Part shown: positions 9,194 through 51,465 of the stretch, piece after piece
Numbering within the stretch: the stretch's first letter is position 1
Layout: every line of letters begins with the position of its first letter
Source of the DNA: an uncultured Arcobacteraceae bacterium
Lineage (GTDB): Bacteria > Campylobacterota > Campylobacteria > Campylobacterales > Arcobacteraceae
DNA: 64,000 nt
NCBI GenBank assembly: GCA_964022095.1
Contig: CAXHZO010000001.1
Span: forward strand, 256,001 to 320,000
Direction: 5' to 3'
Program-made: the position numbers and the translations under genes
The notes under the pieces: generated by a model
The model's input: the letters and a program-made list of their open reading frames with translations, nothing else
Databases searched by the model: none
Told to the model about the DNA's origin: nothing

Positions 9194-9247
9194 ATTATAA
9201 AATAAGTTTATAGCCCTCGTATAGCCCTAAAATAGCGTATTTATAGC
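9194..9247 (-). promoter_or_regulatory. Four tandem GCTA boxes (11-bp period) plus -10 TATAAT upstream of the XdhC-like gene
   Basis: Plus-strand TAGC at 9211, 9222, 9233 and 9244; ATTATA at 9194-9199. Confidence 0.8.
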
Positions 9248-9285
9248 GAATGTTTTTTATACAAGTGTATAAATAAAACTATGTA

Positions 9286-10254
9286 CTAAACAGTTCCCTG
9301 CTCGTACATAGCTCTGATTTTTTCTTTCTCTTTTTGTCTTTTTAACTTTTCTGCTTCTTTTGATCTAAAATTAGCAATTGAAAATTTTAATTGAACTAAA
9401 AATGATGCTGCGATAAAAATAGATGAATAAGTACCTACAATAATACCTACAAGCATTGTAAAGGCAAATCCATGAATAATCTCTCCACCAAAGAAGAATA
9501 GCGTAATAACAACAAAGAATGTTGTTAATGACGTAAGAGTTGTTCTTGATAATGTTTTACTCACTGATTCATTTACAACTTTTTCTAATACTGATTCTTT
9601 AGAAGTTTGAACTCCCTCTCTAATCCTATCAAATACAATAATTGTATCGTTTAGCGAGTATCCTAAGATTGTAAGAATAGCAGCTAAAATATCTAAATTT
9701 ACTTCAATATTAAATAGAGCAATTGCACCAAGTGCAATAGTAACATCATGTGCTAAAGCCAAAATAGAAGCAACGGCAAATCTCCACTCAAATCTAAATG
9801 ATACATAGATTAAGATTACAAGTAATGATAAACCTAACGCCATAAGACCTTTTTCTCTAAGCTCTCCACCAACTTTTGGTCCAACCATATCAACTCTTCT
9901 GATTTCAAACTTACCAGTTGAGTCTAAGATTTTGTGCATCTCATCACCGATGTCATTAGCTAAGTTACTTGAAGTACCCTTAACTCTAATTACAATCTCT
10001 TCAGGAGACCCAAACTCTGTAATTGAAGAGTTTGTATATTTCGTCTTATCTAGTGTTTCTCTAATTTTATCAATTGGTGCTTTTTGTTCATATTGAACTT
10101 GAACAACCGTACCACCTGCAAAGTCAATACCAAAATTTACACCCTTTGTAAAAAGTAAAACTATTGAAGCAATAACTAAAAGACTTGATAAACCTAAAAA
10201 AGGTAATCTCTTTGACATAAAGTCAAATGTTTTATCTACTTTGAAAAATTCCAT
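9286..10254 (-). CDS. secF: Protein translocase subunit SecF
   Basis: GIDFAGG, VGPKVG, GYSLNDTIIVFDRIRE. Confidence 0.97.
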   Translation of the reverse strand: MEFFKVDKTFDFMSKRLPFLGLSSLLVIASIVLLFTKGVNFGIDFAGGTVVQVQYEQKAPIDKIRETLDKTKYTNSSITEFGSPEEIVIRVKGTSSNLANDIGDEMHKILDSTGKFEIRRVDMVGPKVGGELREKGLMALGLSLLVILIYVSFRFEWRFAVASILALAHDVTIALGAIALFNIEVNLDILAAILTILGYSLNDTIIVFDRIREGVQTSKESVLEKVVNESVSKTLSRTTLTSLTTFFVVITLFFFGGEIIHGFAFTMLVGIIVGTYSSIFIAASFLVQLKFSIANFRSKEAEKLKRQKEKEKIRAMYEQGTV

Positions 10255-11822
10255 TATTTAACTCCAAACCATTTTTTCTTATCTTTACTTTGCATAATTT
10301 TTGGTAATAATGCTTCATAAATACCATGTGTTCCTAAAATAGCAGTTAGCATTGATGCTAAAATACCAATAGAAATTGTTACTGCAAAACCTTTAATAGG
10401 TCCAGTTCCATATGCATATAAAATCACAGCAACTAAAAGAGTAGTAATATTTGCATCTAAAATTGCTCTCATTGCATTTGAATACCCATCTTCAATAGCT
10501 TTTGGAATAGATAAACCTTCTCTTAAAAGCTCTCTAATCCTTTCACTAATAATAACATTTGCATCAACTGCCATACCAACAGTAAGTACAATACCAGCCA
10601 TTCCTGGTAATGTTAAAGTTGCTCCAAACATTGCCATAACTGCAATGATAATAAAGATATTTGTAATAAGGGCAATATTAGCAATAATACCAGCTCGTCT
10701 ATAATAAATAATCATAAAGATAAATACCAAAACAAAACCAGAAATAAGTGCAATTGTAGAAGCTTTGATAGAATCAGCACCTAAGCTTGGCCCTACACTT
10801 CTTTTTTCTAAAAGATTAACAGAAGCTGGTAATGCACCACTTCTTAGTGCAATTGCAACATTTCCTGCTTCTGCTACAGTAAATCCACCAGAAATCTGTC
10901 CACTTCCGCCACCAATTCTTTCTCTAATATTTGGTGCAGAGTATACTTTTCCATCTAAAACAACTGCAAGTCTTTTTCCAACACTTTTAGCTGTAAAATC
11001 TCCAAAAATTCTTGCTCCACTTGAATTAAGTGTAAAATTAATAATTGGTTGATTAGCTTGATCAAAAGCCACTTGTGCATCAATAATTTGACTACCATTT
11101 AAGATTGGAATCTCTCTTACTAGATATTTTGTTGAAGCATCATTTGTATCTTCTAAGATTATATCACCATATTGTGAAGCTTGAGAAGCACTCATAGTAT
11201 AAACTTGATCTGCTCTTTCTTCATCAACAGCCATTAACTCTAAATTTGCAGGCTTAGAAATAAGTTCTCTTGCAGCCTTTTCATCTTCAGCAGTTTTTAT
11301 ACCTGGAAGTTGTACTACAATATCTGTATTTCCTTGTCTTACAACTGTTGGCTCTGATAAACCAAATTGGTCAAGTCTATTTCTGATTGTTTCAACAACT
11401 TGTGCAACTGCAAAATCTTTTGTTTTTGCGATATCATCACTTGTTAAAGTCAACATATAATCTTGGTCAGTTTTAGTAACTTCAAGGCCTGTTATAGATG
11501 TTTTTAACATTTCATCCATTTTAGGCATTTCATCTGGGTCTAAAACTGTAAAAGTAACACTATCATCGTTTATCGATAATCCGTCTAATAAAATCTCTTC
11601 ATCATCTGCAAAATATTTTACTGAAGATGCAATTGATTTAATTTTAGCAGTTACGGCTTCTTCAGTGTTAACACCTAAAAGCATATGTAATCCACCTTGT
11701 AAATCAAGTCCTAGTGAGATTTTTTTTCCTGTATCTGTTTGCATAAGTGAAGGGATAGAAAAGAATATACCAAATACAATACTTAATGCAAATATTATGA
11801 ATCTATAATTAAAGATTTTCAA
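10254..11822 (-). CDS. secD: Protein translocase subunit SecD
   Basis: LGLDLQGG, VGPSLG, GMAVDANVII. Confidence 0.97.
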   Translation of the reverse strand: MKIFNYRFIIFALSIVFGIFFSIPSLMQTDTGKKISLGLDLQGGLHMLLGVNTEEAVTAKIKSIASSVKYFADDEEILLDGLSINDDSVTFTVLDPDEMPKMDEMLKTSITGLEVTKTDQDYMLTLTSDDIAKTKDFAVAQVVETIRNRLDQFGLSEPTVVRQGNTDIVVQLPGIKTAEDEKAARELISKPANLELMAVDEERADQVYTMSASQASQYGDIILEDTNDASTKYLVREIPILNGSQIIDAQVAFDQANQPIINFTLNSSGARIFGDFTAKSVGKRLAVVLDGKVYSAPNIRERIGGGSGQISGGFTVAEAGNVAIALRSGALPASVNLLEKRSVGPSLGADSIKASTIALISGFVLVFIFMIIYYRRAGIIANIALITNIFIIIAVMAMFGATLTLPGMAGIVLTVGMAVDANVIISERIRELLREGLSIPKAIEDGYSNAMRAILDANITTLLVAVILYAYGTGPIKGFAVTISIGILASMLTAILGTHGIYEALLPKIMQSKDKKKWFGVK

Positions 11823-11856
11823 TCTTAATCCTTAGTAGGTAAAATTTGAGGTATGT

Positions 11857-11883
11857 AAAACATGTAAGAAACTTACATGTTTT
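11857..11883. terminator. Stem-loop between yajC and secD
   Basis: AAAACATGTAAG-aaa-CTTACATGTTTT perfect inverted repeat. Confidence 0.6.
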
Positions 11884-11893
11884 AGATAATTGT

Positions 11894-12169: not shown

Positions 12170-12197
12170 CAAATTTCCTTTTAAAAAGTAGTCTATT

Positions 12198-13430: not shown

Positions 13431-13434
13431 AAGA

Positions 13435-23713: not shown

Positions 23714-24184
23714 ATGGATTTAATGACTTATATAGACAAAGGTGGAATTATTGTTTATATTCTAATTGCACTTAATACAATTGGATTTACTATTATTTTA
23801 TGGAAGTTTTTTACACTTCCAAGAAAAAATAGTCTAATTGAAAAAATAAAAAAAAGAATAAATCCAGAAAGTTCAGTTTATGCACAAATCGAGTATGAAG
23901 TAAAAAAACTAGAATCAGGATTAACTTATATAAAAAATATTGCAACTATTGCTCCACTTTTAGGATTACTTGGAACTGTAATTGGTGTATATCAGTCATT
24001 TGAAGCAATTACAGCAAATGGATTAGGCGATCCAACTGTATTTTCAAATGGTATTGCAATAGCACTTATTACAACAATTGCAGGTCTTATCGTAGCTATT
24101 CCTCATCATATTGCATATAATCACTTTATTTCAATGATTGATTCAATTGAACTAAAAGCTAAAAAGGTTATTGGTAAGTTTTAA
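23714..24184 (+). CDS. exbB: MotA/TolQ/ExbB proton channel protein
   Basis: APLLGLLGTV.G and GIAIALITTIAGL. Confidence 0.88.
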   Translation: MDLMTYIDKGGIIVYILIALNTIGFTIILWKFFTLPRKNSLIEKIKKRINPESSVYAQIEYEVKKLESGLTYIKNIATIAPLLGLLGTVIGVYQSFEAITANGLGDPTVFSNGIAIALITTIAGLIVAIPHHIAYNHFISMIDSIELKAKKVIGKF

Positions 24185-24573
24185 TGAAAAGAAGAGAACC
24201 TTTAGGTATTGATTTAACACCTATTATTGATGTTGTATTTATTCTTTTAATATTTTTTATTGTTAGTTCTGTATTTAAAAAAGATGAACTTGCTTTAATT
24301 TTAGACTTGCCAACTTCTAGTGCAGATGAAATAAAAGTTGATAAAGAACAAGTATTTATTGAACTTAGTAAAAATAAACTTGCTATAAAAGGTATAGAAG
24401 TATCTTTTGAATCACTTGAAGATAATTTAAAGGCAATTGAAAATAAACAAAAAGCTGTAATAGTTAGAATTGATAAAAAAGTTGAATATGAAAGAGTTGT
24501 AAAATTATTAGATTTACTTCAAAAATATGATTTAACGAACTTAGCATTAGTAACAAACGAAGAAAAGAATTGA
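24184..24573 (+). CDS. exbD: ExbD/TolR biopolymer transport protein
   Basis: LTPIIDVVFILLIFF. Confidence 0.9.
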   Translation: MKRREPLGIDLTPIIDVVFILLIFFIVSSVFKKDELALILDLPTSSADEIKVDKEQVFIELSKNKLAIKGIEVSFESLEDNLKAIENKQKAVIVRIDKKVEYERVVKLLDLLQKYDLTNLALVTNEEKN

Positions 24574-24574
24574 A

Positions 24575-24961
24575 TTAATTCTTTTTCTCGTCTTCTTCTT
24601 TAAACTGAAGATACTCTTCATCAGTCATAATTCTTGATTTTGTTACAAATTGATATCCTAAATCTATCTCTACTGAGAAAGAATTTCCAAATGCAGCGTT
24701 CTCTTTTTTAACCTCAATAGTTAAAAGTGAATGTTTAAAATATTCATATTTTTCTGGAGAAATGTAGAATTCACATCCACAAATTTCACCTAATTTTATA
24801 TGTCTGCTTGGTACATAAAAGTCAGTTGTAGCATAACACATAGGTGCAGTTCCATCACAGCAACCACCACTTTGAGAAAATACTAAATCACCATGTTCTT
24901 TTTTTAAAATTTCAATTACTTCGCAAGTTTCTTTTGTAGCTTGTACTCTTTTTAATGTCAT
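24575..24961 (-). CDS. DUF779 protein (usual partner of ExaC/AldB aldehyde dehydrogenases)
   Basis: QSGGCCDGTAPMCY motif; downstream of the aldehyde dehydrogenase. Confidence 0.9.
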   Translation of the reverse strand: MTLKRVQATKETCEVIEILKKEHGDLVFSQSGGCCDGTAPMCYATTDFYVPSRHIKLGEICGCEFYISPEKYEYFKHSLLTIEVKKENAAFGNSFSVEIDLGYQFVTKSRIMTDEEYLQFKEEDEKKN

Positions 24962-25049: not shown

Positions 25050-26546
25050 TTAAAAGAATCCTAAAGCATTTTTGCTGTAAGAAGTTAAAATATTTTTTGT
25101 GTGTCTGTAAGAGTTTAACATCATCATGTGAGTTTCTCTACCGATACCTGATTTTTTGTATCCACCAAATGATGCATGTGATGGGTATAAGTGGTAACAG
25201 TTAACCCATACTCTACCTGCTTCAATTCCTCTTGACATTCTATGTAATTGGTGAGCGTCTCTTGACCATACACCAGAACCTAATCCGTACTCAGTATCAT
25301 TAGCAATTTCTAATGCTTCAGCTTCATCTTTGAAAGTTGTAAGAGCAAGTACTGGTCCAAAAATTTCTTCTTGGAAGATTCTCATTTTGTTGTGACCTTT
25401 GAAGATCGTTGGTTCAATATAGAATCCATTTGGATTAGTTTCAGATTCATAAACATTTCCACCAATTAGACACTCAGCACCTTCTTCTTTACCAATTTTG
25501 ATATATTCAGCAATTTTCTCTTTTTGGTTAAGAGAACATTGTGCACCCATCATATTTTCAGTATCTAGAGGGTTACCTAATTTAATAGCTTTAACTCTTT
25601 CTAATACTCTTGCTATGAATGGCTCATAAATTGACTCTTGGATTAATGCTCTTGATGGACAAGTACAAACTTCACCAGAGTTAAATGCGAATAATACTAA
25701 ACCTTCAATTGCTTTATCAAAGAACTCATCATCAGCGTCCATGATTGATTCGAAGAATACGTTTGGAGATTTACCACCTAATTCTAATGTAGAAGGGATA
25801 ATGTTCTCAGTAGCATATTGCATAATTAATTGACCAGTAGTTGTTTCACCTGTGAAACCTACTTTTTTAATGTCTGGGTGAGTTGATAAGAATTTACCAA
25901 TTTTTCCACCTGAACCATTAATAATGTTAACAGCACCTTTTGGTAATACATCTTGAATTGTTTCCATTAATAATAAAATTGACATTGGAGTAGCTGATGC
26001 TGGCTTCATAACAATTGTGTTACCTGCTGCTAATGCAGGAGCTAATTTCCATGCTGCCATTAATAATGGGAAGTTCCAAGGAATAATTTGAGCAACAACA
26101 CCATATGGCTCATAAACTTCTTGAGAAATTGTGTTCTCATCTAAATCTGCAACTGAACCAGACTCTCCTCTAATAACTGAAGCAAAGTATCTAAAGTGAT
26201 CTACAACTAAAGGAACGTCTGCATTTAAAGTTTCTCTAACAGTTTTACCGTTATCTAAAGTTTCAGCGATTGCTAAAGCTTCTAAGTTAGCTTCAATTGC
26301 GTCTGCAACTTTATTTAACATTGTACTTCTCTCAACAACTGAAGTATGTTTGTATGATTCGAAACAAGTCTTAGCAGCAGCAATTGCTAACTCTACATCT
26401 TCTTCATTTGATCTTGGAATTTGTGTTAAACCTTTCCCATCAACTGGAGAAATATTTTCAAAGTACTCACCACTCTTTGGAGCAACCCATTCACCACCGA
26501 TGAAGTTCTCATATTGAGCTTTGTATTCTGGTCTACTATAGATCAT
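25050..26546 (-). CDS. aldB: NAD-dependent aldehyde dehydrogenase (ExaC/AldB/PedI type)
   Basis: IIPWNFP, FTGET, LELGGKSP, GEVCTCPSR, EEIFGPV; begins YENFIGGEWVAP like ExaC. Confidence 0.93.
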   Translation of the reverse strand: MIYSRPEYKAQYENFIGGEWVAPKSGEYFENISPVDGKGLTQIPRSNEEDVELAIAAAKTCFESYKHTSVVERSTMLNKVADAIEANLEALAIAETLDNGKTVRETLNADVPLVVDHFRYFASVIRGESGSVADLDENTISQEVYEPYGVVAQIIPWNFPLLMAAWKLAPALAAGNTIVMKPASATPMSILLLMETIQDVLPKGAVNIINGSGGKIGKFLSTHPDIKKVGFTGETTTGQLIMQYATENIIPSTLELGGKSPNVFFESIMDADDEFFDKAIEGLVLFAFNSGEVCTCPSRALIQESIYEPFIARVLERVKAIKLGNPLDTENMMGAQCSLNQKEKIAEYIKIGKEEGAECLIGGNVYESETNPNGFYIEPTIFKGHNKMRIFQEEIFGPVLALTTFKDEAEALEIANDTEYGLGSGVWSRDAHQLHRMSRGIEAGRVWVNCYHLYPSHASFGGYKKSGIGRETHMMMLNSYRHTKNILTSYSKNALGFF

Positions 26547-26629: not shown

Positions 26630-26683
26630 ATTCTACAAGACAAATATAGCAAGAATTTAGCTTAAGTATAGCATAAATATAGC
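26630..26683 (-). promoter_or_regulatory. Four tandem GCTA boxes plus -10 TAGAAT for aldB
   Basis: Plus-strand TAGC at 26647, 26658, 26669 and 26680; ATTCTA at 26630-26635. Confidence 0.85.
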
Positions 26684-26775
26684 GAAGCTATTTTTTTTCT
26701 ATAAATACCTTAAAAACGATATTCTTAAGCTTCTTTTACTTTGTTTTTTTTGTTTTTTTTGCTACAATTTTTTTT

Positions 26776-28692
26776 ATGAAGACATATAATTATACAATTA
26801 AGAACCAACCTTTAGATTTATTAATTGATTTTAATACATTTAAAGACGAAGAAAACATATTAATTCAAATTTTTTGTGGACAAACAAAAGATAAATTAAA
26901 AAAAATTGTTAGAGATTTTAAACAAAAACTTCCACAAGCATTTTTAATTGGTTCATCAACTGATGGAGAGATAAACAATAGTAACATCACTACATTAAAA
27001 ACTGTTATTTCTATCTCAGTTTTTCAAAGTACAACTATTAAATCTGCATATGCAACAGAAGAGGACTCATTTAAAAATGGAGTTAAATTAGCAAAAAAAA
27101 TATGTGAAGACAATTCAAAAGTATTGATAGCTTTTTGTAATCCTTATACTACCAATGGTGAAGAGTTTTTAAATGGTATTAGTTCAGTAGATAACGAAGT
27201 TATTGTTTGTGGAGGAATGGCTGGAGATAATGCAACATTTAAACAAACATTTATATGCTCTGATGAAACAGTATTAACTGATGGTGCTGTAGGTATTACA
27301 TTAAATTCAGATGAACTAAATGCCTGTAGTTCATATAACTTCAACTGGTCCCCTATTGGAATTAACCATGTTATTGAGAAAGTTAAAGGAAATAGAGTTT
27401 ATCAAATCTCAGGATTAAAGCCAATTGATTTTTATAAAAAATATCTAGGAGATTATGTTGCATTATCACTTCCTGCTACAGGTATTGAGTTTCCATTAAT
27501 TGTAAAGAAAAATGGTATACCTTTAGCAAGAGCAGTTATTAATAAACATGATGATGGTAGTTTAAGTTTTGCTGGTAATTTAAATGAAGGGGATATCGTA
27601 AAACTTGGATTTGGTAATGTAGAAATGATTATGAGTAATCCAATTCAGTCATTATTTAATAAATGTTCCATTGTAGATACAGAGTCATTCTTTATTTATT
27701 CATGTATGGCAAGAAGAAGATATATGCCAAGCTTAATTGATATAGAAATAAAACCTTTCTCAAAAGTTGCTACGACATCAGGTTTTTTTACTTATGGCGA
27801 GTTTTATCACAATAAAGAAAAAGTAAGCAATGAACTACTAAACCAAACTTTAACAGTACTTGCATTAAGTGAAAGAGAATCAGAACCTCATAAAGAAAAA
27901 AAAGTTCAAAAAAACGATACAAACTTAAGTGAATATGCAAGAAGTTTACAAGCCTTAACTCACTTGATTCAACAATCATCACAAGATTATAATGATCAAT
28001 CAAAAAAGTTGGAGCAAGGTCATAAATATGCTCAAAATTTAATAGAATCTCAAAAACAATTTTTAAAATATGCAATTCATGAAACGAATACTCCACTTTC
28101 AATTATTATGGGAAATATTGATATGTATGAAATTGAATATGGAAAAAATAAATACTTATCTAATATTGAAGTTGCAATGAAAAATCTATTTAGTATATAT
28201 GACGACTTAAGTTACTTGATTAAGAAAGACCAAGTAAATCAAGCAGTTCATGAAATAAACCTAGTAGACTTTTTACGAAGTAGAATAGATTTTTATACAC
28301 AAAATGCAATAAAATCAAAATCAACACTAAAATTTACTCATAATAAAGACGAAGTCAATTTAAAATTTAATGAAATTAAACTTCAAAGAATTGTTGATAA
28401 TAATTTAACAAATGCAATTAAGTATACATTACCAAATCAAGGCATTAAAGTAAAATTAAAATTACATCCAAATGGCGAGTGTGATTTGTCTTTTGAAAGT
28501 AAATCAGTTCAAATACTTGACCCTCAACAAATATTTGAGGAATACTATAGAGAAGAAGAAACTCAAGATGGATTTGGATTAGGATTAAATTTAGTAAAAA
28601 GAATATGTAGTGAAGAGAATGTTGGAATTAAACTAGAATCTGGTGAAAACTGGGCTTCATTTACTTATACATTTAAAGGAATAAAAATATGA
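26776..28692 (+). CDS. Cytoplasmic FIST (NosP-like) domain sensor histidine kinase
   Basis: FIST motifs GSSTDGEI, GGMAGD, YSCMARR and GFFTYGE; H-box HETNTPL, N-box NAIKY, G-box GFGLGL; no TM helix. Confidence 0.9.
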   Translation: MKTYNYTIKNQPLDLLIDFNTFKDEENILIQIFCGQTKDKLKKIVRDFKQKLPQAFLIGSSTDGEINNSNITTLKTVISISVFQSTTIKSAYATEEDSFKNGVKLAKKICEDNSKVLIAFCNPYTTNGEEFLNGISSVDNEVIVCGGMAGDNATFKQTFICSDETVLTDGAVGITLNSDELNACSSYNFNWSPIGINHVIEKVKGNRVYQISGLKPIDFYKKYLGDYVALSLPATGIEFPLIVKKNGIPLARAVINKHDDGSLSFAGNLNEGDIVKLGFGNVEMIMSNPIQSLFNKCSIVDTESFFIYSCMARRRYMPSLIDIEIKPFSKVATTSGFFTYGEFYHNKEKVSNELLNQTLTVLALSERESEPHKEKKVQKNDTNLSEYARSLQALTHLIQQSSQDYNDQSKKLEQGHKYAQNLIESQKQFLKYAIHETNTPLSIIMGNIDMYEIEYGKNKYLSNIEVAMKNLFSIYDDLSYLIKKDQVNQAVHEINLVDFLRSRIDFYTQNAIKSKSTLKFTHNKDEVNLKFNEIKLQRIVDNNLTNAIKYTLPNQGIKVKLKLHPNGECDLSFESKSVQILDPQQIFEEYYREEETQDGFGLGLNLVKRICSEENVGIKLESGENWASFTYTFKGIKI

Positions 28693-29348
28693 AAATTTTG
28701 CTTTTAGAAGATGACTCTATGTTAAATGAAATGATTGCAGAGTATTTAACTTCAACAGGTCACATTGTAACTACTGCAACTACAGGTAAACAGTGCCTAG
28801 AAATACTTGAGGATGGTAAGTTTGATTTGTTGATTTTAGATATTAACCTCCCTGATATTGATGGTTTTACAATACTAGAGAATCTACATGAACAAAAAAG
28901 AATGATTCCTACTATTTATATATCTGCATTAATTGATATTGAAGAAATTACAAGAGCTTTTGATATTGGATGCCATGATTATTTAAAAAAACCTTTTCAT
29001 TTAAGAGAATTAACTCTTAGAATAAATAAAATTCTAAAAACAAATATTGCTCCTCAAAAGCATAAAAGACTATCAAAATCATATAGTTTTGATGCAGAAT
29101 CAATGACATTATATTTTAATAATGAACCTCACATTTTACCAAAAAGACAACTTCAAATTATTGAACTACTTGCACATAATAGGAGTTTGGTAGTTAATTA
29201 TGATATGTTTAGAACATATGTATGGAATGATGACTATATAGATAATGCAACAATTAGAGCTGAAGTAAATAGGGTTAAAAAAGTACTAAAAGAAGATTTT
29301 ATAAAAAATATTAGAGGAAGTGGATATATGGTTGAAAGACCCAATTAA
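28689..29348 (+). CDS. OmpR/PhoB-family response regulator
   Basis: LLEDD, LDINLP and KPF receiver motifs; C-terminal winged helix ending NIRGSGY. Confidence 0.93.
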   Translation: MKILLLEDDSMLNEMIAEYLTSTGHIVTTATTGKQCLEILEDGKFDLLILDINLPDIDGFTILENLHEQKRMIPTIYISALIDIEEITRAFDIGCHDYLKKPFHLRELTLRINKILKTNIAPQKHKRLSKSYSFDAESMTLYFNNEPHILPKRQLQIIELLAHNRSLVVNYDMFRTYVWNDDYIDNATIRAEVNRVKKVLKEDFIKNIRGSGYMVERPN

Positions 29349-29398: not shown

Positions 29399-29473
29399 TT
29401 ATACGTGACATATATACATAGTAACTTCAAATCCAAATCTGTTATCTACGAATTCCGGAGTTTCCCATTTCAT
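29399..29473 (-). CDS. pqqA: PQQ precursor peptide, copy 1 (MKWETPEFVDNRFGFEVTMYICHV)
   Basis: Hand-translated 24-aa ORF with W..P and GFEVTMY (ExxxY); GGAGG RBS; own TGATATAAT at 29497-29505. Confidence 0.95.
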   Translation of the reverse strand: MKWETPEFVDNRFGFEVTMYICHV

Positions 29474-29525: not shown

Positions 29526-30401
29526 CTAAAATTTAATTGATACATAAAAACTTAAGTCAAACTCATTATCTTCACTTAAAAAATTATTCTTTCTGTAAAT
29601 TACATATGAGGGTTTGGTAGTAGTTTCAAACTCACTTTTAGGAAGCCACTCATGATAAACCCAGTGAATAAACTTTAGAATATCACCTTGTTTTCCTTCA
29701 ACATCAAATTTTGCATAAACACCATCTGATATTTTGAAATTAGGGAGCCTATCACTTTTTATATTGTTTTTTTCATCTGTAACAATACATGCAATATATT
29801 GACACTCTTCTAATGGAGTAATAGTAGGATTATCATGAAATAATGCAATTTGTTTATAGTTATGAATATCATTTGATAAAATCCAAGTTTGAAGTTTTTG
29901 CCAAGCTTGTTTTATATTTACATTATATCCTGGATTTCTAATATAAAAACTCTCAAAAGTTGGCATTTTAACAATTTCAGGAATTTTATCACTGAAATCT
30001 GCAGTTGAACGCATAGCAACATCTGATTGTTGTAAAATTTTATGGGAATAATCTTTATAACCACCATTTCTCCACTGTTTTGGTGTCATTTCAAATCTAT
30101 TTTTAAAAGTTTTTATAAATGAAGATTGAGAAGAGTATCCACAATCATTTGCAATTTCTGATATTGTGGAATATTTATTTGTTAAAAGTAAATTAGATGC
30201 TTTTTGCAATCTGATTGATTTTATACTTTCATAAATATTTTTTCCAAATGCTTCTTTAAAAATTCTATGCATATGAAATTTACTTACACCAAAATCAATA
30301 CTTAACTCTTCAATATCAATATTTGTATCAATATGAGTATAGATATAAAACATAATATCATTTGCTATTTTTGTTCTTTTTTGTAATGTTACTTTCTTCA
30401 T
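29526..30401 (-). CDS. AraC-family regulator with C-terminal GyrI-like ligand-binding domain
   Basis: SKFHMHRIFK and IANDCGYSSQSSFIKTFK double HTH; HDNPTITP...YIAC GyrI-like domain. Confidence 0.9.
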   Translation of the reverse strand: MKKVTLQKRTKIANDIMFYIYTHIDTNIDIEELSIDFGVSKFHMHRIFKEAFGKNIYESIKSIRLQKASNLLLTNKYSTISEIANDCGYSSQSSFIKTFKNRFEMTPKQWRNGGYKDYSHKILQQSDVAMRSTADFSDKIPEIVKMPTFESFYIRNPGYNVNIKQAWQKLQTWILSNDIHNYKQIALFHDNPTITPLEECQYIACIVTDEKNNIKSDRLPNFKISDGVYAKFDVEGKQGDILKFIHWVYHEWLPKSEFETTTKPSYVIYRKNNFLSEDNEFDLSFYVSIKF

Positions 30402-34356: not shown

Positions 34357-34431
34357 TTAGTTATGACAAATGTACATTGTCACTTCAAAACCAAATCTGT
34401 TATCTACGAACATAGGTGTTTCCCATTTCAT
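34357..34431 (-). CDS. pqqA: PQQ precursor peptide, copy 2 (MKWETPMFVDNRFGFEVTMYICHN)
   Basis: Hand-translated 24-aa ORF with ExxxY; AAGGAGG RBS; directly upstream of pqqB. Confidence 0.97.
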   Translation of the reverse strand: MKWETPMFVDNRFGFEVTMYICHN

Positions 34432-34467: not shown

Positions 34468-36231
34468 TTACTTATGTAATTTAAATACGTGAACTGTCCC
34501 ACCTTGGTTGATGTTTTTAACAAGTTTTGCAACTTCACCACCCCATAATGGAACAGCACCACCCCAACCAGAAACGATTGCGATATATTGCTCACCATTT
34601 TGAGTCCATGTTACAGGAGATGAAACAATTCCTGAACCAACATTAAAGCTATATAATGTTTCACCAGACTCGTCATCTAATGCTAAGAATTTACCTTCAG
34701 GAGTACCGAAGAATACTAAACCACCAGCAGTAGTTAAAACTCCACCCCATAATGGTGCAGGGTTTTTATAATTCCATTTAATATCACCAGTTAATGGATC
34801 AATTGCTTTTAATGAACCAATATGGTCATCAAAAATTGGTTTAATTGTAAATCCAGCACCTAAGTAAGCAGCACCTTTTTTATAAGAAATTGGTTGATTC
34901 CAAATATCCATACCCCACTCATTTGATGGAACATAGAAGTTACCAGTTTTTTGAGAGTATGCCATTGGCATCCAGTTTTTACCACCTAAGAACGAAGGAA
35001 CAGACCATACTGATTTACCTTTAGACTCAGAACCAGGATTACCAGGTCTTCCATCTTTAGTATATAAAGGTCTTCCATCTTTTCCAATTCCAGTTGCCCA
35101 AGTAATATTTGAAACAAATGGATTAGCAGTAATGAAGTCACCATTAGTTCTATCTAATACATAGAAGAAACCATTTCTATCTGCAGTTGCAGCATATTTT
35201 TTACCATCTTTGTTGAAAGAAATTAACTCATTAACACCATCAAAATCCCATCCATCATGTGGAGTTGTTTGGAAATGCCATACAATTTTACCAGTATCAG
35301 GATCAATAGCTAATCTTGAAGAAGAGTATAAGTTATCACCTGGTCTTGTGTGTGAATTCCAAGGTGCAGGGTTACCAGTACCAAAGAATAAAAGGTCTGT
35401 TTCTGGATCATAAGTACCACCTAACCATGTAGCAGCACCACCAGTTTTCCACATATCACCTGGCCATGTTTTACCAGCTTCACCACCAGTAATTCCATTT
35501 TCTTTACCATTTAAGTAACCCATGTGACCTTCAACAGTTGGTCTATTCCAAACTACTTCACCAGTTTTAGCATTTCTTGCTTCAACTTTACCAACGATAC
35601 CAAATTCACCACCAGCAACACCAGTGATTACCATATCTTTTACGATAATTGGAGCAGCAGTAATTGAGTAACCGTCTTTATATTTTGCAATTCTTTTTTT
35701 CCATACAACTTTACCAGTTTTTCTATCTAAAGCAACTAGTTTAGCATCTAATGTACCGAAAATAAATAAGTTTTCGTATAATGCTCCACCTCTGTTGATA
35801 ACATCACAACAAGGTAAAATTGCGCTTGGTAATTTTGCATCATATTGCCATAATTCTTCACCAGTAGCAATATCAATTGCATACGCTCTTGAATAAGAAC
35901 CAGTTACATACATAACTCCATCTTTAATTAATGGTTGTGACTCTTGTCCTCTTTGTTTTTCCCCACCAAATGAGAAGTTCCATACAGGTACTAAATTTTT
36001 AACAGTCTCTTTATTAACTTGTGTTAATTGTGAGTATCTTTGTCCTTGTAATCCCATACCGTTAGATAATACATCCTCAGTAGATTTTACATCATTTAAT
36101 ACATCGTTACTTGTTACAGTTGCAAAACCTGGCTTAGTAACTTTTTGTACATTAGTATCAGCAACACATCCTGTGATTAACGCAGCTAATGAAACAGCGA
36201 TAGCACTCTTTAATAGTACTTTTTTACTCAT
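34468..36231 (-). CDS. pedH: Lanthanide-type PQQ alcohol dehydrogenase (PedH/ExaF class), predicted lipoprotein
   Basis: [13 protein letters not shown], vicinal [20 protein letters not shown] with the extra Asp (35236-35250); lipobox ITGC. Confidence 0.92.
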
Positions 36232-36281
36232 AGTCTCTCCTTAATTTATGTTATAACAAATTGGGAATTTGTCTTATCAAA

Positions 36282-36313
36282 AGTATACATGAGAAACATA
36301 GCATAAGTTTAGC
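36282..36313 (-). promoter_or_regulatory. GCTA-N7-GCTA box plus -10 TATACT for pedH
   Basis: TAGC at 36299 and 36310; AGTATA at 36282-36287. The distal box overlaps the pedC last codon and stop. Confidence 0.8.
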
Positions 36314-37850: not shown

Positions 37851-37882
37851 ATTATATGACATCTTTATAGCATACATTTAGC
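37851..37882 (-). promoter_or_regulatory. GCTA-N7-GCTA box plus -10 TATAAT for pedBC
   Basis: TAGC at 37868 and 37879; ATTATA at 37851-37856. Confidence 0.85.
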
Positions 37883-37959: not shown

Positions 37960-38034
37960 TTATTCATTACAAATATACATTGTAACTTCAAAACCAAATC
38001 TATTATCAACGAACATCGGTGTTTCCCATTTCAT
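37960..38034 (-). CDS. pqqA: PQQ precursor peptide, copy 3 (MKWETPMFVDNRFGFEVTMYICNE)
   Basis: Hand-translated 24-aa ORF with ExxxY; AAGGAGG RBS; downstream of pedE-pedD. Confidence 0.96.
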   Translation of the reverse strand: MKWETPMFVDNRFGFEVTMYICNE

Positions 38035-38823: not shown

Positions 38824-40710
38824 TTATCTTTTAAGTTTAAATACCCAGAAAGAACCACCTTGAGATACAGGTTTAGTTAATTCAGCCATGTCTCCACCCC
38901 ATAAAGGTACAGCTCCACCGTAACCACTTGCAAGTCCTATATATTGTTCACCATCTTCTTCCCAAGTAATTGGACAAGAAATAATTCCAGAACCAGTTTG
39001 GAACTTCCATAACTCTTTACCAGTTTTTGCATCAAATGCTTTAACATAACCATCACCAGTACCTGTAAATACAAGGCCACCTTTAGTAGTTAATACTCCA
39101 GCCCATAATGGTAATTTTTCTTTATGTGACCATACAATTTCGCCTTTTACTGGATCAACTGCTCTTAAAATACCTACATGATCATCATAAGTTCTCTTAA
39201 TTCTAAATCCTTGACCTAAATACGCTGCACCTTTTTTGTACTCAATAGGTTGAGTCCAATAATCTTCTTCCCAATGGTTTGCACCAAGATAGAATAATTT
39301 TGTATCTTCATTATATGCCATTGGGTTCCAGTTCTTACCACCTAAGAATGGTGGAGCAACCTTGATAGCTTTTCCTCTTGTTTTCCCCTCTTCAGGTAAT
39401 GGTGGGTATTGTTTTGGATCAACAACTGGTCTACCTGTTTTTGGGTCAATATGACTTGCCCATGTAATCTTATCAACAAATGGGAAAGCTTTAATAAATC
39501 TTCTTGCTTGATCTTCTCTTTGCTTATCAGCTTTTTTCATAGTTTCTCTATTAATTACATAGAAGAATCCATTTCTATCTGCATGTCCAGTAGCTTTAAT
39601 TGTTTTACCATTTTCTACATAATCAAATAGTACTAATTCATTATTACCTGAGAAATCCCATGCATCATTTGGTGTATGTTGGTAGAACCATTTAATATCA
39701 CCAGTAGTTGGGTCAACTGAAATTTGTCCTGATGTATATAAACTATCCCAATCTCTTGGATCTCCACCATCAGCAGTTCTTTCCCAAGTATTCCATGGTG
39801 CTGGATTTCCAGTACCTATAATAATTGAGTTTGTTTCATAATCATAACTAGCACTTTGCCATGGTGCACCACCACCGTGACTCCAAGCTGTTTTTTTACC
39901 AGTAGGATTATTTTTATCATCTGGCCAAGTTGGAGCTTTAGGATCTCCTGTTGGAGTTGATTTTTTACCATTTAATCTACCATAGTGACCTTCAACCATA
40001 GGTCTCATCCAGATCTCTTTACCTGTATCTGGATCTAATGCAAATAATTTACCTATAACACCGAATTCATCACCTGATGAACCATGGATTAACATTACTT
40101 TTCCAGTTTTTTTATCTTTTACAATAGTTGGAGCACCAGTCATAGTATAACCGTCTTGATACCCTTTATTTGGTCTATCTGCATATCCAAATCTTTTTTT
40201 CCAGATCACTTTTCCTGTATCTTTATTTAATGCAACAATACCAGCATCTAAAGTACCAAAGAATACTTTATCTCCAAATATAGCTGCACCTCTGTTAATT
40301 ACATCACAACAAGGTTTAATATCTGAAGGTAATCTATGCTCATATTCCCATATTTTTTTACCACTTTTTGAATCAAGTGCAAATAATCTTGAATATGATC
40401 CAGTTACATATATTTTTCCATCATGAACTAAAGCTTGAGACTCTTGTCCTCTTTGTTTCTCTCCTCCAAATGAAAACGTCCAAGCTGGTACTAAATCTTT
40501 AATAGTTTTAGTATTTATCTCATCAAGTTTTGAGTATCTTTTTGCTTCTGGTCCCATACCATACATTAATACATCTTCAGTTGTATTTTTATCATTTAAG
40601 ATATCGTCCCATGATACTTTTTTTGTTTCAGTACTTGCAACACTAGATTGAAGTCCTAATAAACCAACAAAAGTCATAACAGCTGCTTTTTGTAACAAAT
40701 GATTTCTCAT
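38824..40710 (-). CDS. pedE: Calcium-type PQQ ethanol/alcohol dehydrogenase (PedE/ExaA class)
   Basis: [29 protein letters not shown] (Ser in place of the lanthanide Asp, 39646-39660). Confidence 0.94.
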   Translation of the reverse strand: MRNHLLQKAAVMTFVGLLGLQSSVASTETKKVSWDDILNDKNTTEDVLMYGMGPEAKRYSKLDEINTKTIKDLVPAWTFSFGGEKQRGQESQALVHDGKIYVTGSYSRLFALDSKSGKKIWEYEHRLPSDIKPCCDVINRGAAIFGDKVFFGTLDAGIVALNKDTGKVIWKKRFGYADRPNKGYQDGYTMTGAPTIVKDKKTGKVMLIHGSSGDEFGVIGKLFALDPDTGKEIWMRPMVEGHYGRLNGKKSTPTGDPKAPTWPDDKNNPTGKKTAWSHGGGAPWQSASYDYETNSIIIGTGNPAPWNTWERTADGGDPRDWDSLYTSGQISVDPTTGDIKWFYQHTPNDAWDFSGNNELVLFDYVENGKTIKATGHADRNGFFYVINRETMKKADKQREDQARRFIKAFPFVDKITWASHIDPKTGRPVVDPKQYPPLPEEGKTRGKAIKVAPPFLGGKNWNPMAYNEDTKLFYLGANHWEEDYWTQPIEYKKGAAYLGQGFRIKRTYDDHVGILRAVDPVKGEIVWSHKEKLPLWAGVLTTKGGLVFTGTGDGYVKAFDAKTGKELWKFQTGSGIISCPITWEEDGEQYIGLASGYGGAVPLWGGDMAELTKPVSQGGSFWVFKLKR

Positions 40711-40780: not shown

Positions 40781-40812
40781 ATTATACATTTTAATTATAG
40801 CCTTAGTTTAGC
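40781..40812 (-). promoter_or_regulatory. GCTA-N7-GCTA box plus -10 TATAAT for pedE
   Basis: TAGC at 40798 and 40809; ATTATA at 40781-40786. Confidence 0.85.
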
Positions 40813-42487: not shown

Positions 42488-42519
42488 ATTGTATTAAAGT
42501 TTTATAGCTTCAGTTTAGC
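42488..42519 (-). promoter_or_regulatory. GCTA-N7-GCTA box plus -10 TACAAT for cupredoxin-like/pedA2
   Basis: TAGC at 42505 and 42516; ATTGTA at 42488-42493. Confidence 0.85.
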
Positions 42520-42543
42520 ATTTAATGTTTTTCTTATTATTTT

Positions 42544-42575
42544 GCTAAACTATAGCTATATATTTTCTATACAAT
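42544..42575 (+). promoter_or_regulatory. GCTA-N7-GCTA box plus -10 TACAAT for pedA1
   Basis: GCTA at 42544 and 42555; TACAAT at 42570-42575. Confidence 0.85.
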
Positions 42576-42601: not shown

Positions 42602-43750
42602 ATGAAAATTATAATTTCGATACTTTTTTTAATAAGTTTAATAAAAGCAGAAATACTAGAAGTTAATATCTTATATTTAGAACAAAAAATACAAAAGCCA
42701 CCTATTCTTTCAAATGTTATTGAAGAGCCTGAGGACTTAGGACTAAAAGGTGCACAAATTGCTATTAAAGATAGTAATAAAACGGCAAAGTTTTTAAATC
42801 AACACTATAATTTGATAGAAAAAATATCTTACGATAAAAAAGAGCTAAAAAAAGATTTTGAAGAATTTATAAATAGTGGAAATTCATATATACTTTTAAA
42901 TGTTGAAGATGATTTTTTTAAAGAGTTACTAAATAACCCACTTTCAAAAAAAGCATTATTAATAAACTCAAGTAGTAAAACAACTGACTTAAGAAAACAA
43001 TATTGTCAAGAGAATTTACTTCATACAATTTCAAGCAATGCAATGCTTTATGATGGATTAGTACAATTTCTAATAAAAAGAAACTTCAAAGATATATTTT
43101 TAATTAGTGGAGAAAATCCAAAAGATAACCTAATTGTAAAAGATATAAAAAGAGCAATTAAAAAATTTAATGCAAATATAATTAAAGAAAAAGTTTGGGA
43201 TAATAATAGTGATATTAGAAGAAAAGCAAATGCAGAGTTTCCAGTATTTACTCAAGCAAAAGATTATGATTTAGTTATGTTAGCTGATCACTATGGGGAT
43301 TTTGGCGAGTTTATGTATTTTAATACTTGGCTTCCAAGACCAGTTGCAGGAACACAAGGATTAACTCCTGTTACTTGGCATAAAGTTATTGAAGCTTGGG
43401 GTGCAGCACAAATGCAAAGTAGATTTGAAGATTTTGCTTCTAGATGGATGCAATCAAAAGACTATTCAAACTGGGTAGCAATTAGAACAATTATTACATC
43501 GATTTCAAAAACAAAAACTTCTGATTTAAAAACAAATTTAGAGCTTATTAGATCAAAAAGTTTTGATATAGCTGCATATAAAGGAAGAAAACTATCTTTT
43601 AGAGACTATAATGGGCAATTAAGAATGCCTGTTTCTTTAGTACAACCAAGAGCACTTATTTCAACTTCACCGCAGGTTGGTTTTTTACATCCTGAAACTG
43701 ATTTAGATACATTAGGTATTGCACCATTTGAAATGGAGTGTAAAAAATGA
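42602..43750 (+). CDS. pedA1: ABC substrate-binding protein of PQQ alcohol dehydrogenase systems (PedA1 type); start moved to ATG 42602
   Basis: PRPVAGTQGL, WGAAQMQSRF, SFRDYNGQLR, SPQVGFLH..TDLDTLG; AAGGA RBS before 42602. Confidence 0.87.
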   Translation: MKIIISILFLISLIKAEILEVNILYLEQKIQKPPILSNVIEEPEDLGLKGAQIAIKDSNKTAKFLNQHYNLIEKISYDKKELKKDFEEFINSGNSYILLNVEDDFFKELLNNPLSKKALLINSSSKTTDLRKQYCQENLLHTISSNAMLYDGLVQFLIKRNFKDIFLISGENPKDNLIVKDIKRAIKKFNANIIKEKVWDNNSDIRRKANAEFPVFTQAKDYDLVMLADHYGDFGEFMYFNTWLPRPVAGTQGLTPVTWHKVIEAWGAAQMQSRFEDFASRWMQSKDYSNWVAIRTIITSISKTKTSDLKTNLELIRSKSFDIAAYKGRKLSFRDYNGQLRMPVSLVQPRALISTSPQVGFLHPETDLDTLGIAPFEMECKK

Positions 43751-44220: not shown

Positions 44221-44226
44221 AACTTT

Positions 44227-45201: not shown

Positions 45202-45326
45202 AAAAAATCCTTTATTTTCTTTACTTCTTAATGAAACTTTAGCTAAAATACAAACTTAAGACAAGTACATACTAAAAAGAAATGTACTATATAAAAAGAT
45301 ACCTATGTGATTTTAAGGGGTTTACA

Positions 45327-45668
45327 ATGAATAAGAAAATGGAAGAAAAAGAATTAATTGAGAAATGTCCAGTTGAAACAGCACTTGATGTACTAGCTGG
45401 AAAATGGAAAATTTTAATATTATGGTATTTAAAAAGTGAAACTAGAAGATTTAGTGAACTACAAAAACTACTGCCAAGAACAACTCAAAAAATGTTAATT
45501 CAAAAATTAAGAGAACTTGAAGAGGATGGAATAATTCATAGAGAAGTATATCCAGTAGTTCCACCAAAAGTAGAATACTCTTTAACTGAGTATGGTGAAA
45601 CACTGAAACCTATATTAAAACAATTATACAAATGGGGTGAAATTCACAAAGAAAAGTATAATAAATAA
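45327..45668 (+). CDS. HxlR-family winged-helix regulator (likely start ATG 45327)
   Basis: CPVE...GKWK, QKML..LRELEEDG, VPPKVEYSLT; divergent from the oxidoreductase. Confidence 0.92.
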   Translation: MNKKMEEKELIEKCPVETALDVLAGKWKILILWYLKSETRRFSELQKLLPRTTQKMLIQKLRELEEDGIIHREVYPVVPPKVEYSLTEYGETLKPILKQLYKWGEIHKEKYNK

Positions 45669-45694
45669 TATAGCTTAATTAATTTTGGCTATTG

Positions 45695-45814: not shown

Positions 45815-45972
45815 AATTAGTTCCTTATAGTTATATTTTATTACTATACACAATAACATATATAACTTATTTTATTCTTAAGAAATCTATAGTAATTTAC
45901 TTATATTTTAATAAAAAACCTCCTAACTGTATATATACTGTACAATTAAGAGAATATTACAACCTTTTTTTA

Positions 45973-48481: not shown

Positions 48482-48552
48482 TTATCAGCCCTTTATAAAA
48501 TAATCTATAATTGTACTGTAAATTAATAAATGTATAAATAAATAAGAAAAAA

Positions 48553-49646: not shown

Positions 49647-49647
49647 A

Positions 49648-50379: not shown

Positions 50380-50393
50380 AATATAATTCCCAT

Positions 50394-51350
50394 TTATTTT
50401 TCAAAGTCCCAGAAAGTTTTTGTTTGTAAATAATTACTATTTTTAACTAATTTTCTACCACCCTGCTTTAGAAGAATCTCAAATATTTTTGAAGAATCTT
50501 TAATGTTTTTCTTTGTAAAATCTTTAATTACACCTGCTTTATAACCATCTATTAATGCATTAAAAGTTTTTTCATCTTTCACGTTCATTAATGGTTTAAT
50601 TCTCTCCCACTCTTTTTTATTATTTATTAAAATATCTTTTGCTTCATGTGTAGCTTTTATAAAAGAGTTATATAATTTTTTATTTTCTAAAGCAATATCT
50701 CTTCTAAAAGTCCATCCAACAGTTGAAATATCTTCTTTTATTCCAAAAGAAGCAAATACATCTTTAATTCTTATAAATTCTTTCGCCCCTTTTGCTTTAA
50801 CTTTTGCATTAAAATGCCAAAAATTAATTGCTCCATCTAATGAGCCATCTAATACTTTTTTCATTAAAATTGGAGGAGCAGCAAAAACTGGCTTAATTAT
50901 ATTTTTCAAATCTTTACCATATTTTAACTTTGAATAAGCCCTTAAGATTAGCCATGTTTTATCAACAGGACCTCCAGCAATACCTATACTTTGTCCTTCC
51001 AAATCTAAAATAGTTTTTGCATTATTATTTTTGTTTATATACATAGTGCCATTAGCTTTTGAATAAGGATAAAAAGTAAAATCTTTACCACTCGCTCTTT
51101 GAGTATTAACCCAAATCCAATCAGTAACAAAAATATCTACACTTTTAGATTGAAAGGCAACAGAGGTGGCATTTTTTGATGCTAATTTAACAATATCTAA
51201 ATCAAAGCCATATTTTTTATCTAATTTATGATGTTTTATTACATTTAGTTCCCAATTTACAGTACCAAAGGCAAGAACTCCAACTTTTAATTTTTCACTT
51301 GCACTAAGATTCAAAATTAATAAAAAGATTAAAAAATTCACTTTTTTCAT
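50394..51350 (-). CDS. NMT1/TauA-type ABC substrate-binding protein, PqqT-like (putative PQQ binding)
   Basis: FGTVNWEL..IKHH.LD, DWIWV..QR and AGGPVDKTW; a family I recognise from xoxF/PQQ clusters. The PqqT assignment is from recall. Confidence 0.65.
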   Translation of the reverse strand: MKKVNFLIFLLILNLSASEKLKVGVLAFGTVNWELNVIKHHKLDKKYGFDLDIVKLASKNATSVAFQSKSVDIFVTDWIWVNTQRASGKDFTFYPYSKANGTMYINKNNNAKTILDLEGQSIGIAGGPVDKTWLILRAYSKLKYGKDLKNIIKPVFAAPPILMKKVLDGSLDGAINFWHFNAKVKAKGAKEFIRIKDVFASFGIKEDISTVGWTFRRDIALENKKLYNSFIKATHEAKDILINNKKEWERIKPLMNVKDEKTFNALIDGYKAGVIKDFTKKNIKDSSKIFEILLKQGGRKLVKNSNYLQTKTFWDFEK

Positions 51351-51379
51351 ACAATTTATCCTTAAAGTTATTTAATGAA

Positions 51380-51411
51380 ATTGTATATGAGTTTTATAGC
51401 ATAAATTTAGC
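51380..51411 (-). promoter_or_regulatory. GCTA-N7-GCTA box plus -10 TACAAT for the PqqT-like ABC operon
   Basis: TAGC at 51397 and 51408; ATTGTA at 51380-51385. Confidence 0.85.
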
Positions 51412-51433
51412 ATTTGATGATTCTTTTTTAAAT

Positions 51434-51465
51434 GCTATAATGAGGCTATAAAAAGAGTCTATAAT
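51434..51465 (+). promoter_or_regulatory. GCTA-N7-GCTA box plus -10 TATAAT for the pedF operon
   Basis: GCTA at 51434 and 51445; TATAAT at 51460-51465. Confidence 0.85.

Follow-up and report, generated by a model that had tools for sequence, protein, structure and literature searches.

A predicted activator box of 11-bp repeats before aldehyde- and alcohol-oxidation genes of Arcobacteraceae and its candidate FIST kinase/OmpR-type regulator pair

A stretch of 64,000 nt from the genome of an uncultured Arcobacteraceae bacterium (contig CAXHZO010000001.1, positions 256,001 to 320,000; hereafter the window) contains an aldB-like aldehyde dehydrogenase gene and ped and pqq genes for alcohol oxidation with pyrroloquinoline quinone (PQQ), and nine of its promoters share a short direct repeat, GCTA-N7-GCTA, that stops at the same distance from the −10 element. 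The question raised by this locus is which protein reads the repeat, and in answer to which signal. We consider it probable that the repeat is the activator site of the OmpR/PhoB-type response regulator encoded at 28689–29348, switched by the adjacent soluble FIST-domain kinase on build-up of an aldehyde such as acetaldehyde. Judged from sequence comparison, the repeat is almost certainly a functional regulator site, a role in activation is highly likely, and the protein that binds it is very likely the regulator 28689–29348; an aldehyde as the signal, acting directly or through a cofactor, is mildly favoured.

The repeat and its register in the window

The preliminary description of this DNA had quoted nine sites of the form GCTA-N7-GCTA-N11-TANNNT, and all of them were found at the places and on the strands given there. 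The pattern that it proposed for a scan against a shuffled background, GCTA-N7-GCTAT-N10-TANNNT, was matched 10 times in the window; the mean was 0.02 in 100 dinucleotide shuffles, none of which reached 10 matches. The 10 matches correspond to the nine promoters and one off-register match within a four-repeat array (9205–9236). In any context, GCTA-N7-GCTA occurred 13 times in this DNA of 28% G+C, every time in one of the nine promoters; within the window, GCTA pairs at gaps of 5, 6 and 9 nt were absent and a gap of 8 nt was seen six times.

The 11-bp period and the distance of 11 nt to the −10 were borne out at all nine sites. The repeat unit is 11 bp long, GCTA(A/T)A(C/T)T-n-A-n, and is present in two copies, at aldB in four; the four-repeat arrays noted earlier at aldB (26646–26683) and at an XdhC-like gene (9210–9247) were both recovered. 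The repeat pair stops a fixed 11 nt short of a σ70 −10 element and spans the −35 region; if transcription is assumed to start 7 nt past the −10, the repeats lie at about −38 to −35 and −27 to −24. Where a −35 element would normally lie, the hexamers do not resemble TTGACA. As had been described, the sites point towards their genes, with 36–84 nt between the −10 and the eight gene starts located by a search for a Shine-Dalgarno (SD) sequence with ATG, and two pairs of boxes are divergent (42488–42575 and 51380–51465). The start missed by this search was that of pedB, and the start of pedA1, previously given as 42542, is probably at 42602. Direct repeats with a period of 10–11 bp, a constant placement across the −35 region of a σ70 promoter with a poor −35 (the starts being predicted) and a co-occurring regulator with receiver and winged helix characterize OmpR/PhoB-type sites, and all three were found here.

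The presumed core target on the minus strand is aldB (25050–26546), encoding an NAD-dependent aldehyde dehydrogenase like AldB/ExaC (828 bits with the ExaC model, cut-off 900); its four-repeat box, predicted to be two tandem dimer sites, has the −10 TAGAAT (26630–26683, minus strand; predicted start about 26623). A DUF779 gene (24575–24961, minus strand) lies behind aldB and travels with it. Also on the minus strand, the pedH box (36282–36313, −10 TATACT), whose first repeat overlaps the stop codon of pedC, precedes pedH (34468–36231) followed by pqqA-B-C-D-E, the box of pedB-pedC has the −10 TATAAT (37851–37882), and the pedE box with the same −10 (40781–40812) precedes pedE (38824–40710), a pentapeptide-repeat gene and a pqqA copy. 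A box with the −10 TACAAT (42488–42519, minus strand), before genes for a 142-aa exported protein and the β-propeller protein PedA2, is the divergent partner of the pedA1 box (42544–42575, plus strand, −10 TACAAT). The other divergent pair is formed by the box of an operon for an NMT1-type ATP-binding cassette (ABC) transporter (51380–51411, minus strand, −10 TACAAT) and that of pedF, encoding cytochrome c550 (51434–51465, plus strand, −10 TATAAT), which also precedes genes for a binding protein, a SoxYZ-like carrier and a Zn hydrolase. The ninth box, with four repeats and the −10 TATAAT, belongs to the XdhC-like gene (9194–9247, minus strand; predicted start about 9187).

For gene labels, 61 proteins of the window were compared with NCBIfam and Pfam models. 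The ped/pqq cluster, the aldB-like gene, the FIST kinase and the OmpR-type regulator were confirmed, while 'cupredoxin-like' and 'PqqT-like' were left unconfirmed, the sole confirmation for the latter protein being an NMT1 periplasmic-binding Pfam match. Among the RNA contigs of 4 of the 15 runs listed, one ends at 36261 and another at 36250, short of the predicted pedH start at 36275; such contigs cannot show starts or levels, and their ends were not counted as evidence. A conserved hairpin in the pedH leader was set aside as a switch, as its folding is weak (0 to −6.8 kcal/mol) and it is missing in 2 of 23 cases.

The kinase (26776–28692, plus strand) has the Pfam architecture FIST_N-FIST_C-HisKA-HATPase and no membrane helix, its maximum 19-residue hydropathy being 1.13 versus 2.90 for the kinase of the acetate system considered below. 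His198 and Cys310 are invariant across 72 aligned kinase homologs; no solved structure covers the FIST part. The regulator gene (28689–29348, plus strand) encodes a receiver and a winged helix whose recognition helix, NATIRAEVNRVKK, is nearly invariant among orthologs. Upstream of the kinase, the extended −10 TGCTACAAT (26760–26768, plus strand) lies 7 nt before the ATG and no SD is present; similar extended −10 elements 6–7 nt before the ATG, again with no SD, were seen across the family in the kinase upstream regions compared. The promoter of this operon is thus predicted to be leaderless and independent of the box. The missing membrane helix and the conserved leaderless extended −10 together lead to the prediction that sensor and regulator are always present in the cytoplasm.

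Distribution of the box with the kinase and regulator

The family sample comprised 184 Arcobacteraceae genomes, of which 99 were counted as kinase-positive (best match near full length, E at most about 1e-135) and 57 had a PQQ dehydrogenase match. A strict pattern for boxes of the window type (class A) was found in 85 of the 99 genomes with the FIST-domain kinase, namely in all 56 that have a PQQ dehydrogenase as well (median 5 sites) and in 29 of the 43 with the kinase only (median 1 site). It was also present in the single genome with a frameshifted kinase and in 3 of the 84 genomes that lack both kinase and PQQ dehydrogenase. In genus g11 the strict box occurred in 20 of 23 genomes with the kinase and in none of the 21 without the kinase.

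The surroundings of the dehydrogenase or the kinase were read in 100 regions (1.68 Mb) from 32 of the 57 dehydrogenase genomes, from kinase-only genomes and from paralog loci. They contained 311 repeat pairs at a gap of 7 nt, no other gap between 3 and 13 nt accounted for more than 25, and a −10 (TANN(A/C)T) followed exactly 11 nt on in 201 of 274 class-A pairs. Among the matches listed, the boxes of relatives precede aldB, pedH, pedE, pedF, pedA1, the propeller gene, the NMT1-type transporter and further genes; where the order of the cluster is rearranged, the box travels with its genes. When a matrix was built from 191 distinct sites of relatives, with the own genome excluded, the nine window sites ranked 1 to 9 in the 2.57-Mb genome (scores 23.0–34.5); three shuffled genomes gave 1, 0 and 0 matches over 17. 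The next ranks were C9:56511, C4:28053 and three weaker sites, and the C4:28053 site belongs to a type II NADH dehydrogenase-like gene that is boxed too in four relatives (G041, G049, G050 and G132). A perfect run of four repeats was present in 37 of 54 aldB promoters, eight have two pairs set 12 apart with 11 kept inside each pair, which fits two tandem dimers, and the remaining ones have one or more degenerate repeats.

Co-occurrence, synteny and geometry support both earlier proposals, that the box is an activator site and that it is bound by the regulator 28689–29348. The view that the regulon equals the alcohol-oxidation cluster had to be modified: the constant member is an aldehyde-oxidising enzyme, AldB or another, and 57 of the 184 genomes have the PQQ cluster as an add-on. 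Likewise, the proposed scan pattern does catch class-A boxes but is not regulator-specific, matching 171 of the 184 genomes because the paralogous acetate regulator has a sister box.

Outside the family, 221 genomes of the order Campylobacterales were sampled, and the regulator subfamily was matched in 96 of them. Forty regions around such matches were read, and 19 of them contained a full-length FIST-type kinase, identified by Pfam at L203 and by 48–54% identity over about 630 residues elsewhere. The adjacent boxed gene encodes a molybdopterin aldehyde oxidoreductase in nine of these loci, AldB with DUF779 in five and a tungsten aldehyde:ferredoxin oxidoreductase in one; three more are boxed with the target off the contig, and one has no box. 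Loci L214, L246, L257 and L259 match the kinase core only, not FIST, and in most other regions the kinase paired with the regulator is not of the FIST type, actP/acs lie beside them and the box is of the acetate type. In a regulator tree (quick method), the FIST-coupled group had a support of 82, and the whole subfamily grouped apart from other OmpR proteins with a support of 98. In these comparisons the box tracks the kinase–regulator pair, and the neighbour is an aldehyde-oxidising enzyme drawn from three unrelated families.

Loose box matches number 7–12 in each of five genomes of genus g44. Among the genes that they precede are those of the tungsten enzyme, of two ferredoxins and of tungstate uptake, a Hyf-like hydrogenase operon, and genes for an Opr porin, a chemoreceptor with a FIST domain and an Acr3 transporter. 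This genus is probably Sulfurospirillum, because an aldehyde oxidoreductase of this kind is described as conserved in all Sulfurospirillum and not in other Epsilonproteobacteria (PMC6242987; this and the other papers cited are quoted from excerpts). In S. multivorans fermenting pyruvate, compared with pyruvate/fumarate, the aldehyde oxidoreductase SMUL_2101 was up 141.6-fold, the tungsten enzyme 8.2-fold, HyfA 9.5-fold and the ferredoxin before ndk 6.5-fold, and the regulator SMUL_2103, two loci from SMUL_2101, was unchanged (0.96); in S. cavolei the molybdenum enzyme was up 6.6-fold and Hyf 2- to 5-fold (PMC6242987). Four of five counterparts of boxed genes thus rise together in S. multivorans, and S. 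cavolei agrees only in part. The 142-fold induction is left unexplained in the excerpts of PMC6242987, and our analysis offers a candidate regulator for it. One of the g44 boxes precedes a chemoreceptor gene with a NosP-like FIST domain (L226:1566–3569), possibly an aldehyde chemoreceptor.

Several points weigh against the proposed reading. The strict pattern was derived from kinase-positive genomes, so the positives are partly circular and the negatives are not; related genomes are not independent either, which leaves the negatives as the informative half. The strict match is missing in 14 of the 99 kinase genomes (a looser box was still present in 4 of the 8 strict-negative ones whose loci were read), and both aldB and a class-A box are missing from the 10–14 kb read at each of ten paralogous FIST kinase loci of the family (L113–L122) and at L127 and L128. 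The assignment of the scattered g44 boxes to the FIST-coupled regulator rather than the acetate paralog is not certain, and g44 genes were matched to SMUL genes by annotation and gene order. Tungstate uptake was not induced (0.52–0.80 in S. multivorans, with 0.52 for the binding protein; WtpA 1.15 in S. cavolei), the tungsten enzyme was down in S. cavolei (0.31, p 0.06), and aldehyde formation in these cells is called obscure by the authors themselves (PMC6242987). In addition, the FIST ligands on record are nitric oxide (NO) and heme, the binding mechanism being described as little known (PMC8846402).

The signal and the alternative readings

In the mechanism that we propose, an aldehyde, e.g. 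acetaldehyde, accumulating in the cell would switch on the FIST kinase, and the kinase–regulator operon would always be on from its own leaderless promoter. The phosphorylated regulator would bind the repeats as a head-to-tail dimer, at aldB as two dimers, so that aldB should respond first and four-repeat promoters would be the first to be activated. The bound regulator would recruit σ70 polymerase and replace the −35 element. The output would be removal of the aldehyde together with, where present, the periplasmic PQQ alcohol-oxidation chain, which in Arcobacteraceae would turn periplasmic alcohol to aldehyde and thereby close a positive feed-forward loop. AldB would yield acetate, upon which the paralogous regulator would switch on acetate uptake and pta-ackA. 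A wider proposal, tentative and in our judgement a little short of an even chance, is that in Campylobacterota a FIST domain senses aldehyde and drives an OmpR-type activator of the lineage's aldehyde oxidiser (NAD-, molybdenum- or tungsten-dependent), that this activator took over the lanthanide-dependent PQQ pathway in Arcobacteraceae, and that a duplicate of the regulator recognizes a version of the box changed at two bases and runs acetate uptake, giving a paired relay from alcohol/aldehyde to acetate that a few flanking bases insulate.

The alternative that survives best keeps box and regulator and changes the signal: the kinase would sense NO or heme, as NosP does, the cytoplasmic redox state or alcohol itself. 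We regard this as possible but doubtful. It draws on the recorded ligands of FIST-FIST_C proteins (PMC8846402), on the two invariant residues, on a weak match of the sensor part to the NosP model (50 bits, far below the cut-off of 450) and on the nosP-nahK homolog pair in the Pseudomonas ped cluster, which is discussed as NO-sensing (PMC12997753); redox load could also explain the induction in fermenting Sulfurospirillum. Three findings argue against it: the adjacent boxed gene alternates among three unrelated aldehyde-oxidising families; 43 family genomes in which no PQQ alcohol dehydrogenase was found keep kinase and regulator, and in most of their loci read aldB is still the neighbour; and the boxed genes annotated include no NO-detoxifying gene. 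With aldehydes, our reading proposes a ligand class for FIST domains.

It seems improbable that the main reader of the sites, or a second one beside 28689–29348, is the regulator of an acetate cluster, an arrangement that would place alcohol and acetate genes in one regulon. This regulator (C1:164242–164904 of the own genome) is 55% identical to the regulator 28689–29348 and is the only other one with the same recognition helix among 36 aligned from this genome, NPTIRAEISRLKK being near-identical to that of 28689–29348. It is paired with a membrane Cache kinase, and its cluster holds solute symporters, actP-like genes and pta-ackA. The promoters of acetate clusters have TGCTA(C/T)-n-TT(A/T)T-TGC(T/A)A at the identical 11-nt spacing, also in genomes free of the FIST kinase; the GCTA core and the spacing are thus common to both sets, and several window sites score 14–20 on an acetate matrix. 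In at least five genomes (L051, L060, L072, L073 and L076) an acetate-type repeat pair lies about 40–50 bp upstream of the class-A boxes of aldB, which suggests cross-regulation of aldB or of the kinase operon. The two kinds of box nevertheless differ at fixed positions: position 6 of the unit is A in 97% and 93% of 199 class-A sites versus 4% and 17% of 24 acetate sites, and a T precedes GCTA in 100% of acetate sites versus 41% and 16% of class-A sites. The acetate pattern was found in 156 of the 184 family genomes, including all 44 of g11, and the 21 g11 genomes that lack the FIST kinase all have the acetate regulator and acetate boxes and no class-A box. If the regulator 28689–29348 reads the class-A boxes, the paralogs form a compact natural case of near-identical DNA-binding helices that perhaps keep separate targets. 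In the own genome, TGCTA boxes were seen in the acetate cluster C1:162678–179192 (L153) and at C18:21984 (L154). A further conserved acetate-type box is divergent from a bioF-like gene and in some genomes stands before a major facilitator superfamily (MFS) transporter gene; in L158, L160 and L162 it precedes no long open reading frame.

A still smaller chance, which we consider very slim, is left for the repeats as core promoter elements (a stacked extended −10, helical A/T periodicity or an alternative sigma factor) or as a repressor site. TGCTATAAT does form an extended −10, the distal repeat reads TAnnnT, GCTA is found in the kinase's own extended −10, and the site overlaps the −35 region. 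Only 30% of sites, however, show the final T of a −10 in the proximal repeat, and four-repeat arrays, the fixed 11+15 register and the dependence on the presence of one regulator would be left unexplained, so that the stacked −10 was rejected. The −35 hexamers unlike TTGACA fit promoters that need help, and for PceP, an OmpR-type protein of Sulfurospirillum, activation from a site placed like this has been argued (PMC7755780). Binding by another regulator encoded in or near the cluster is hardly credible, as the AraC/GyrI protein (29526–30401), largely refuted as box binder, does not follow the distribution of the box (matched in 44 of 44 g11 genomes, the 21 box-free ones included, and not found in G137 and G138 with 4 strict sites each), the HxlR protein (45282–45668) was rejected for its presence in the cluster in G001 and the window only, among the loci read, and the OmpR-type protein 61171–61854 has a different helix, NVIEVAINQIRQ, and 26% identity.

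Related systems and neighbouring genes

In the PHO system the box ends 10 bp short of the −10, and PhoB contacts region 4 of σ70. The same distance is found in the GCTAT-N10 register of the window, and the PhoB system likewise combines a receiver/winged-helix regulator with two 11-nt direct repeats. The repeats of the PHO box are bound head-to-tail in tandem, and some promoters have longer arrays (PMC4415409; for tandem binding also PMC10294691). The core is GCTA here instead of TGTCA (CTGTCAT-type), however, the recognition helix is another one, a soluble FIST kinase takes the place of PhoR, and the targets serve aldehyde and alcohol oxidation (aldB, ped). PhoB was not among the best models for the regulator, with listed scores far below the cut-off; by this, its core and its targets the site falls outside the Pho regulon proper.

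The closest experimentally tested case in the phylum is PceS/PceP, again with an OmpR-type activator, repeats over the −35 region and an 11-bp period. PceP gel-shifts CTATW repeats over the −35 of TANNAT promoters, in which CTATA recurs at 6-nt gaps, and the nearest relative from outside is reported to be a further Arcobacter system, with 46% identity (PMC7755780). That system differs in its consensus CTATW-N17-CTATW, its seven-helix membrane sensor, its tetrachloroethene (PCE) signal and its dehalogenase targets; two-repeat sites with no N17 partner, a kinase with no membrane helix and other targets place the present locus outside the PceP regulon. SulRS of Sulfurimonas also has an OmpR-type regulator that binds direct repeats in catabolic promoters (PMC12936845); its repeat is of the TTACA type, its sensor is in the membrane and its signal is thiosulfate.

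With the ped/exa system of Pseudomonas the locus shares its targets (pedE, pedH, pedF, pedA1A2BC, aldB, pqq, a porin and a SoxH-like hydrolase), and a NosP-like protein with a soluble kinase is found inside the Pseudomonas cluster as well. Control in Pseudomonas runs through YiaY-PP_2683, AgmR/PedR1, PedS2-PedR2 and PP_2663-PedS1, with LuxR-type regulators and a separate lanthanide switch; the excerpts of this paper do not contain the word Arcobacter (PMC12997753). Here, by contrast, a single OmpR-type regulator with a FIST-fused kinase is proposed, with the box at both pedE and pedH. No LuxR-type gene was found among the 61 window proteins scanned, the whole genome not having been searched, and NCBIfam and Pfam annotated no PedS2/PedR2-like pair among them. 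The PQQ alcohol pathway of Arcobacteraceae would thus stand under a regulator family unlike the Pseudomonas cascade. NosP-NahK resembles the present kinase in that a FIST_N and FIST_C sensor controls a soluble kinase, but here the sensor is fused to the kinase, falls far below the NosP cut-off and has transcription of aldehyde-oxidation genes as its predicted output.

In the open literature, no publication on this box, on this regulator or on FIST as an aldehyde sensor was found among the matches listed, subscription journals and regulon databases lying outside the coverage. Sites of this kind are known; what appears to be undescribed is the system itself, how far it extends across Campylobacterales, its link to aldehydes and the sister box of the acetate genes. 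Together these would add two regulons of carbon use, with boxes and candidate regulators, to a phylum with few known regulator sites.

Following the D-x-D rule, the enzyme with WDFDGVNE (PedH, 34468–36231) is presumably of the lanthanide type and that with WDFSGNNE (PedE, 38824–40710) of the calcium type. WDFDGVNE was present in 17 of 17 pedH-like proteins read. A calcium-type, pedE-like enzyme was found in 9 of the 57 family genomes with a PQQ dehydrogenase, four of which have both types, and the others match the lanthanide type better; lanthanide-only alcohol oxidation thus seems to be the rule in Arcobacteraceae. The closest named relatives of the window PQQ dehydrogenase are records from Arcobacter, Aliarcobacter and Poseidonibacter. 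The box is common to pedE and pedH, and no lanthanide-switch pair is annotated in the window. Three pqqA copies lie on the minus strand (29399–29473, 34357–34431 and 37960–38034), the first of them separated from the pqq operon, with its own TGATATAAT in front and no box.

The XdhC-like gene (8225–9160, minus strand) encodes a putative molybdenum-cofactor chaperone and is the second copy in the genome, apart from any molybdenum enzyme. Its label withstood scrutiny in spite of a lacking Pfam match, with an Atlas score of 0.90, a template modelling (TM) score of 0.80 and homologs directly behind a molybdenum enzyme of the xanthine-oxidase family; a single-sequence fold was unusable (predicted local distance difference test, pLDDT, 40.8). 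The four-repeat array precedes the four closest homologs (L134–L137) and none of the 15 more distant ones read. A molybdenum aldehyde oxidoreductase with its own XdhC is encoded at C2:161369–164752 of the own genome, with no GCTA in the 220 bases upstream. An XdhC-like target fits a regulon tied to molybdenum aldehyde oxidoreductases.

An additional boxed gene of relatives, of about 399 aa, is porin-like; acetate kinase and XdhC were rejected as its identity. Genera g11 and g20 have it in their ped clusters (L037:8752–9951 and homologs), and it was not found in the own genome by phmmer. Several copies have a four-repeat promoter much like that of the window XdhC-like gene, the resemblance being close in g11. 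As an exception, the boxed gene in L080 encodes a type II NADH dehydrogenase-like flavoprotein, and in G041 the porin-like gene is interrupted by a 533-aa open reading frame on the opposite strand (L035:9817–11418), possibly an insertion element. A second pair of FIST kinase and regulator, which shares the recognition helix, is encoded in L113–L122; in most of these loci its neighbours are a pyruvate-kinase-like and an OmpA-like gene, and no boxed target is evident close by. Finally, a delta-class carbonic anhydrase-like gene (PF10563, 22728–23585) adjoins exbB-exbD (23714–24573) in the window, and exbBD remains beside DUF779-aldB in many relatives.

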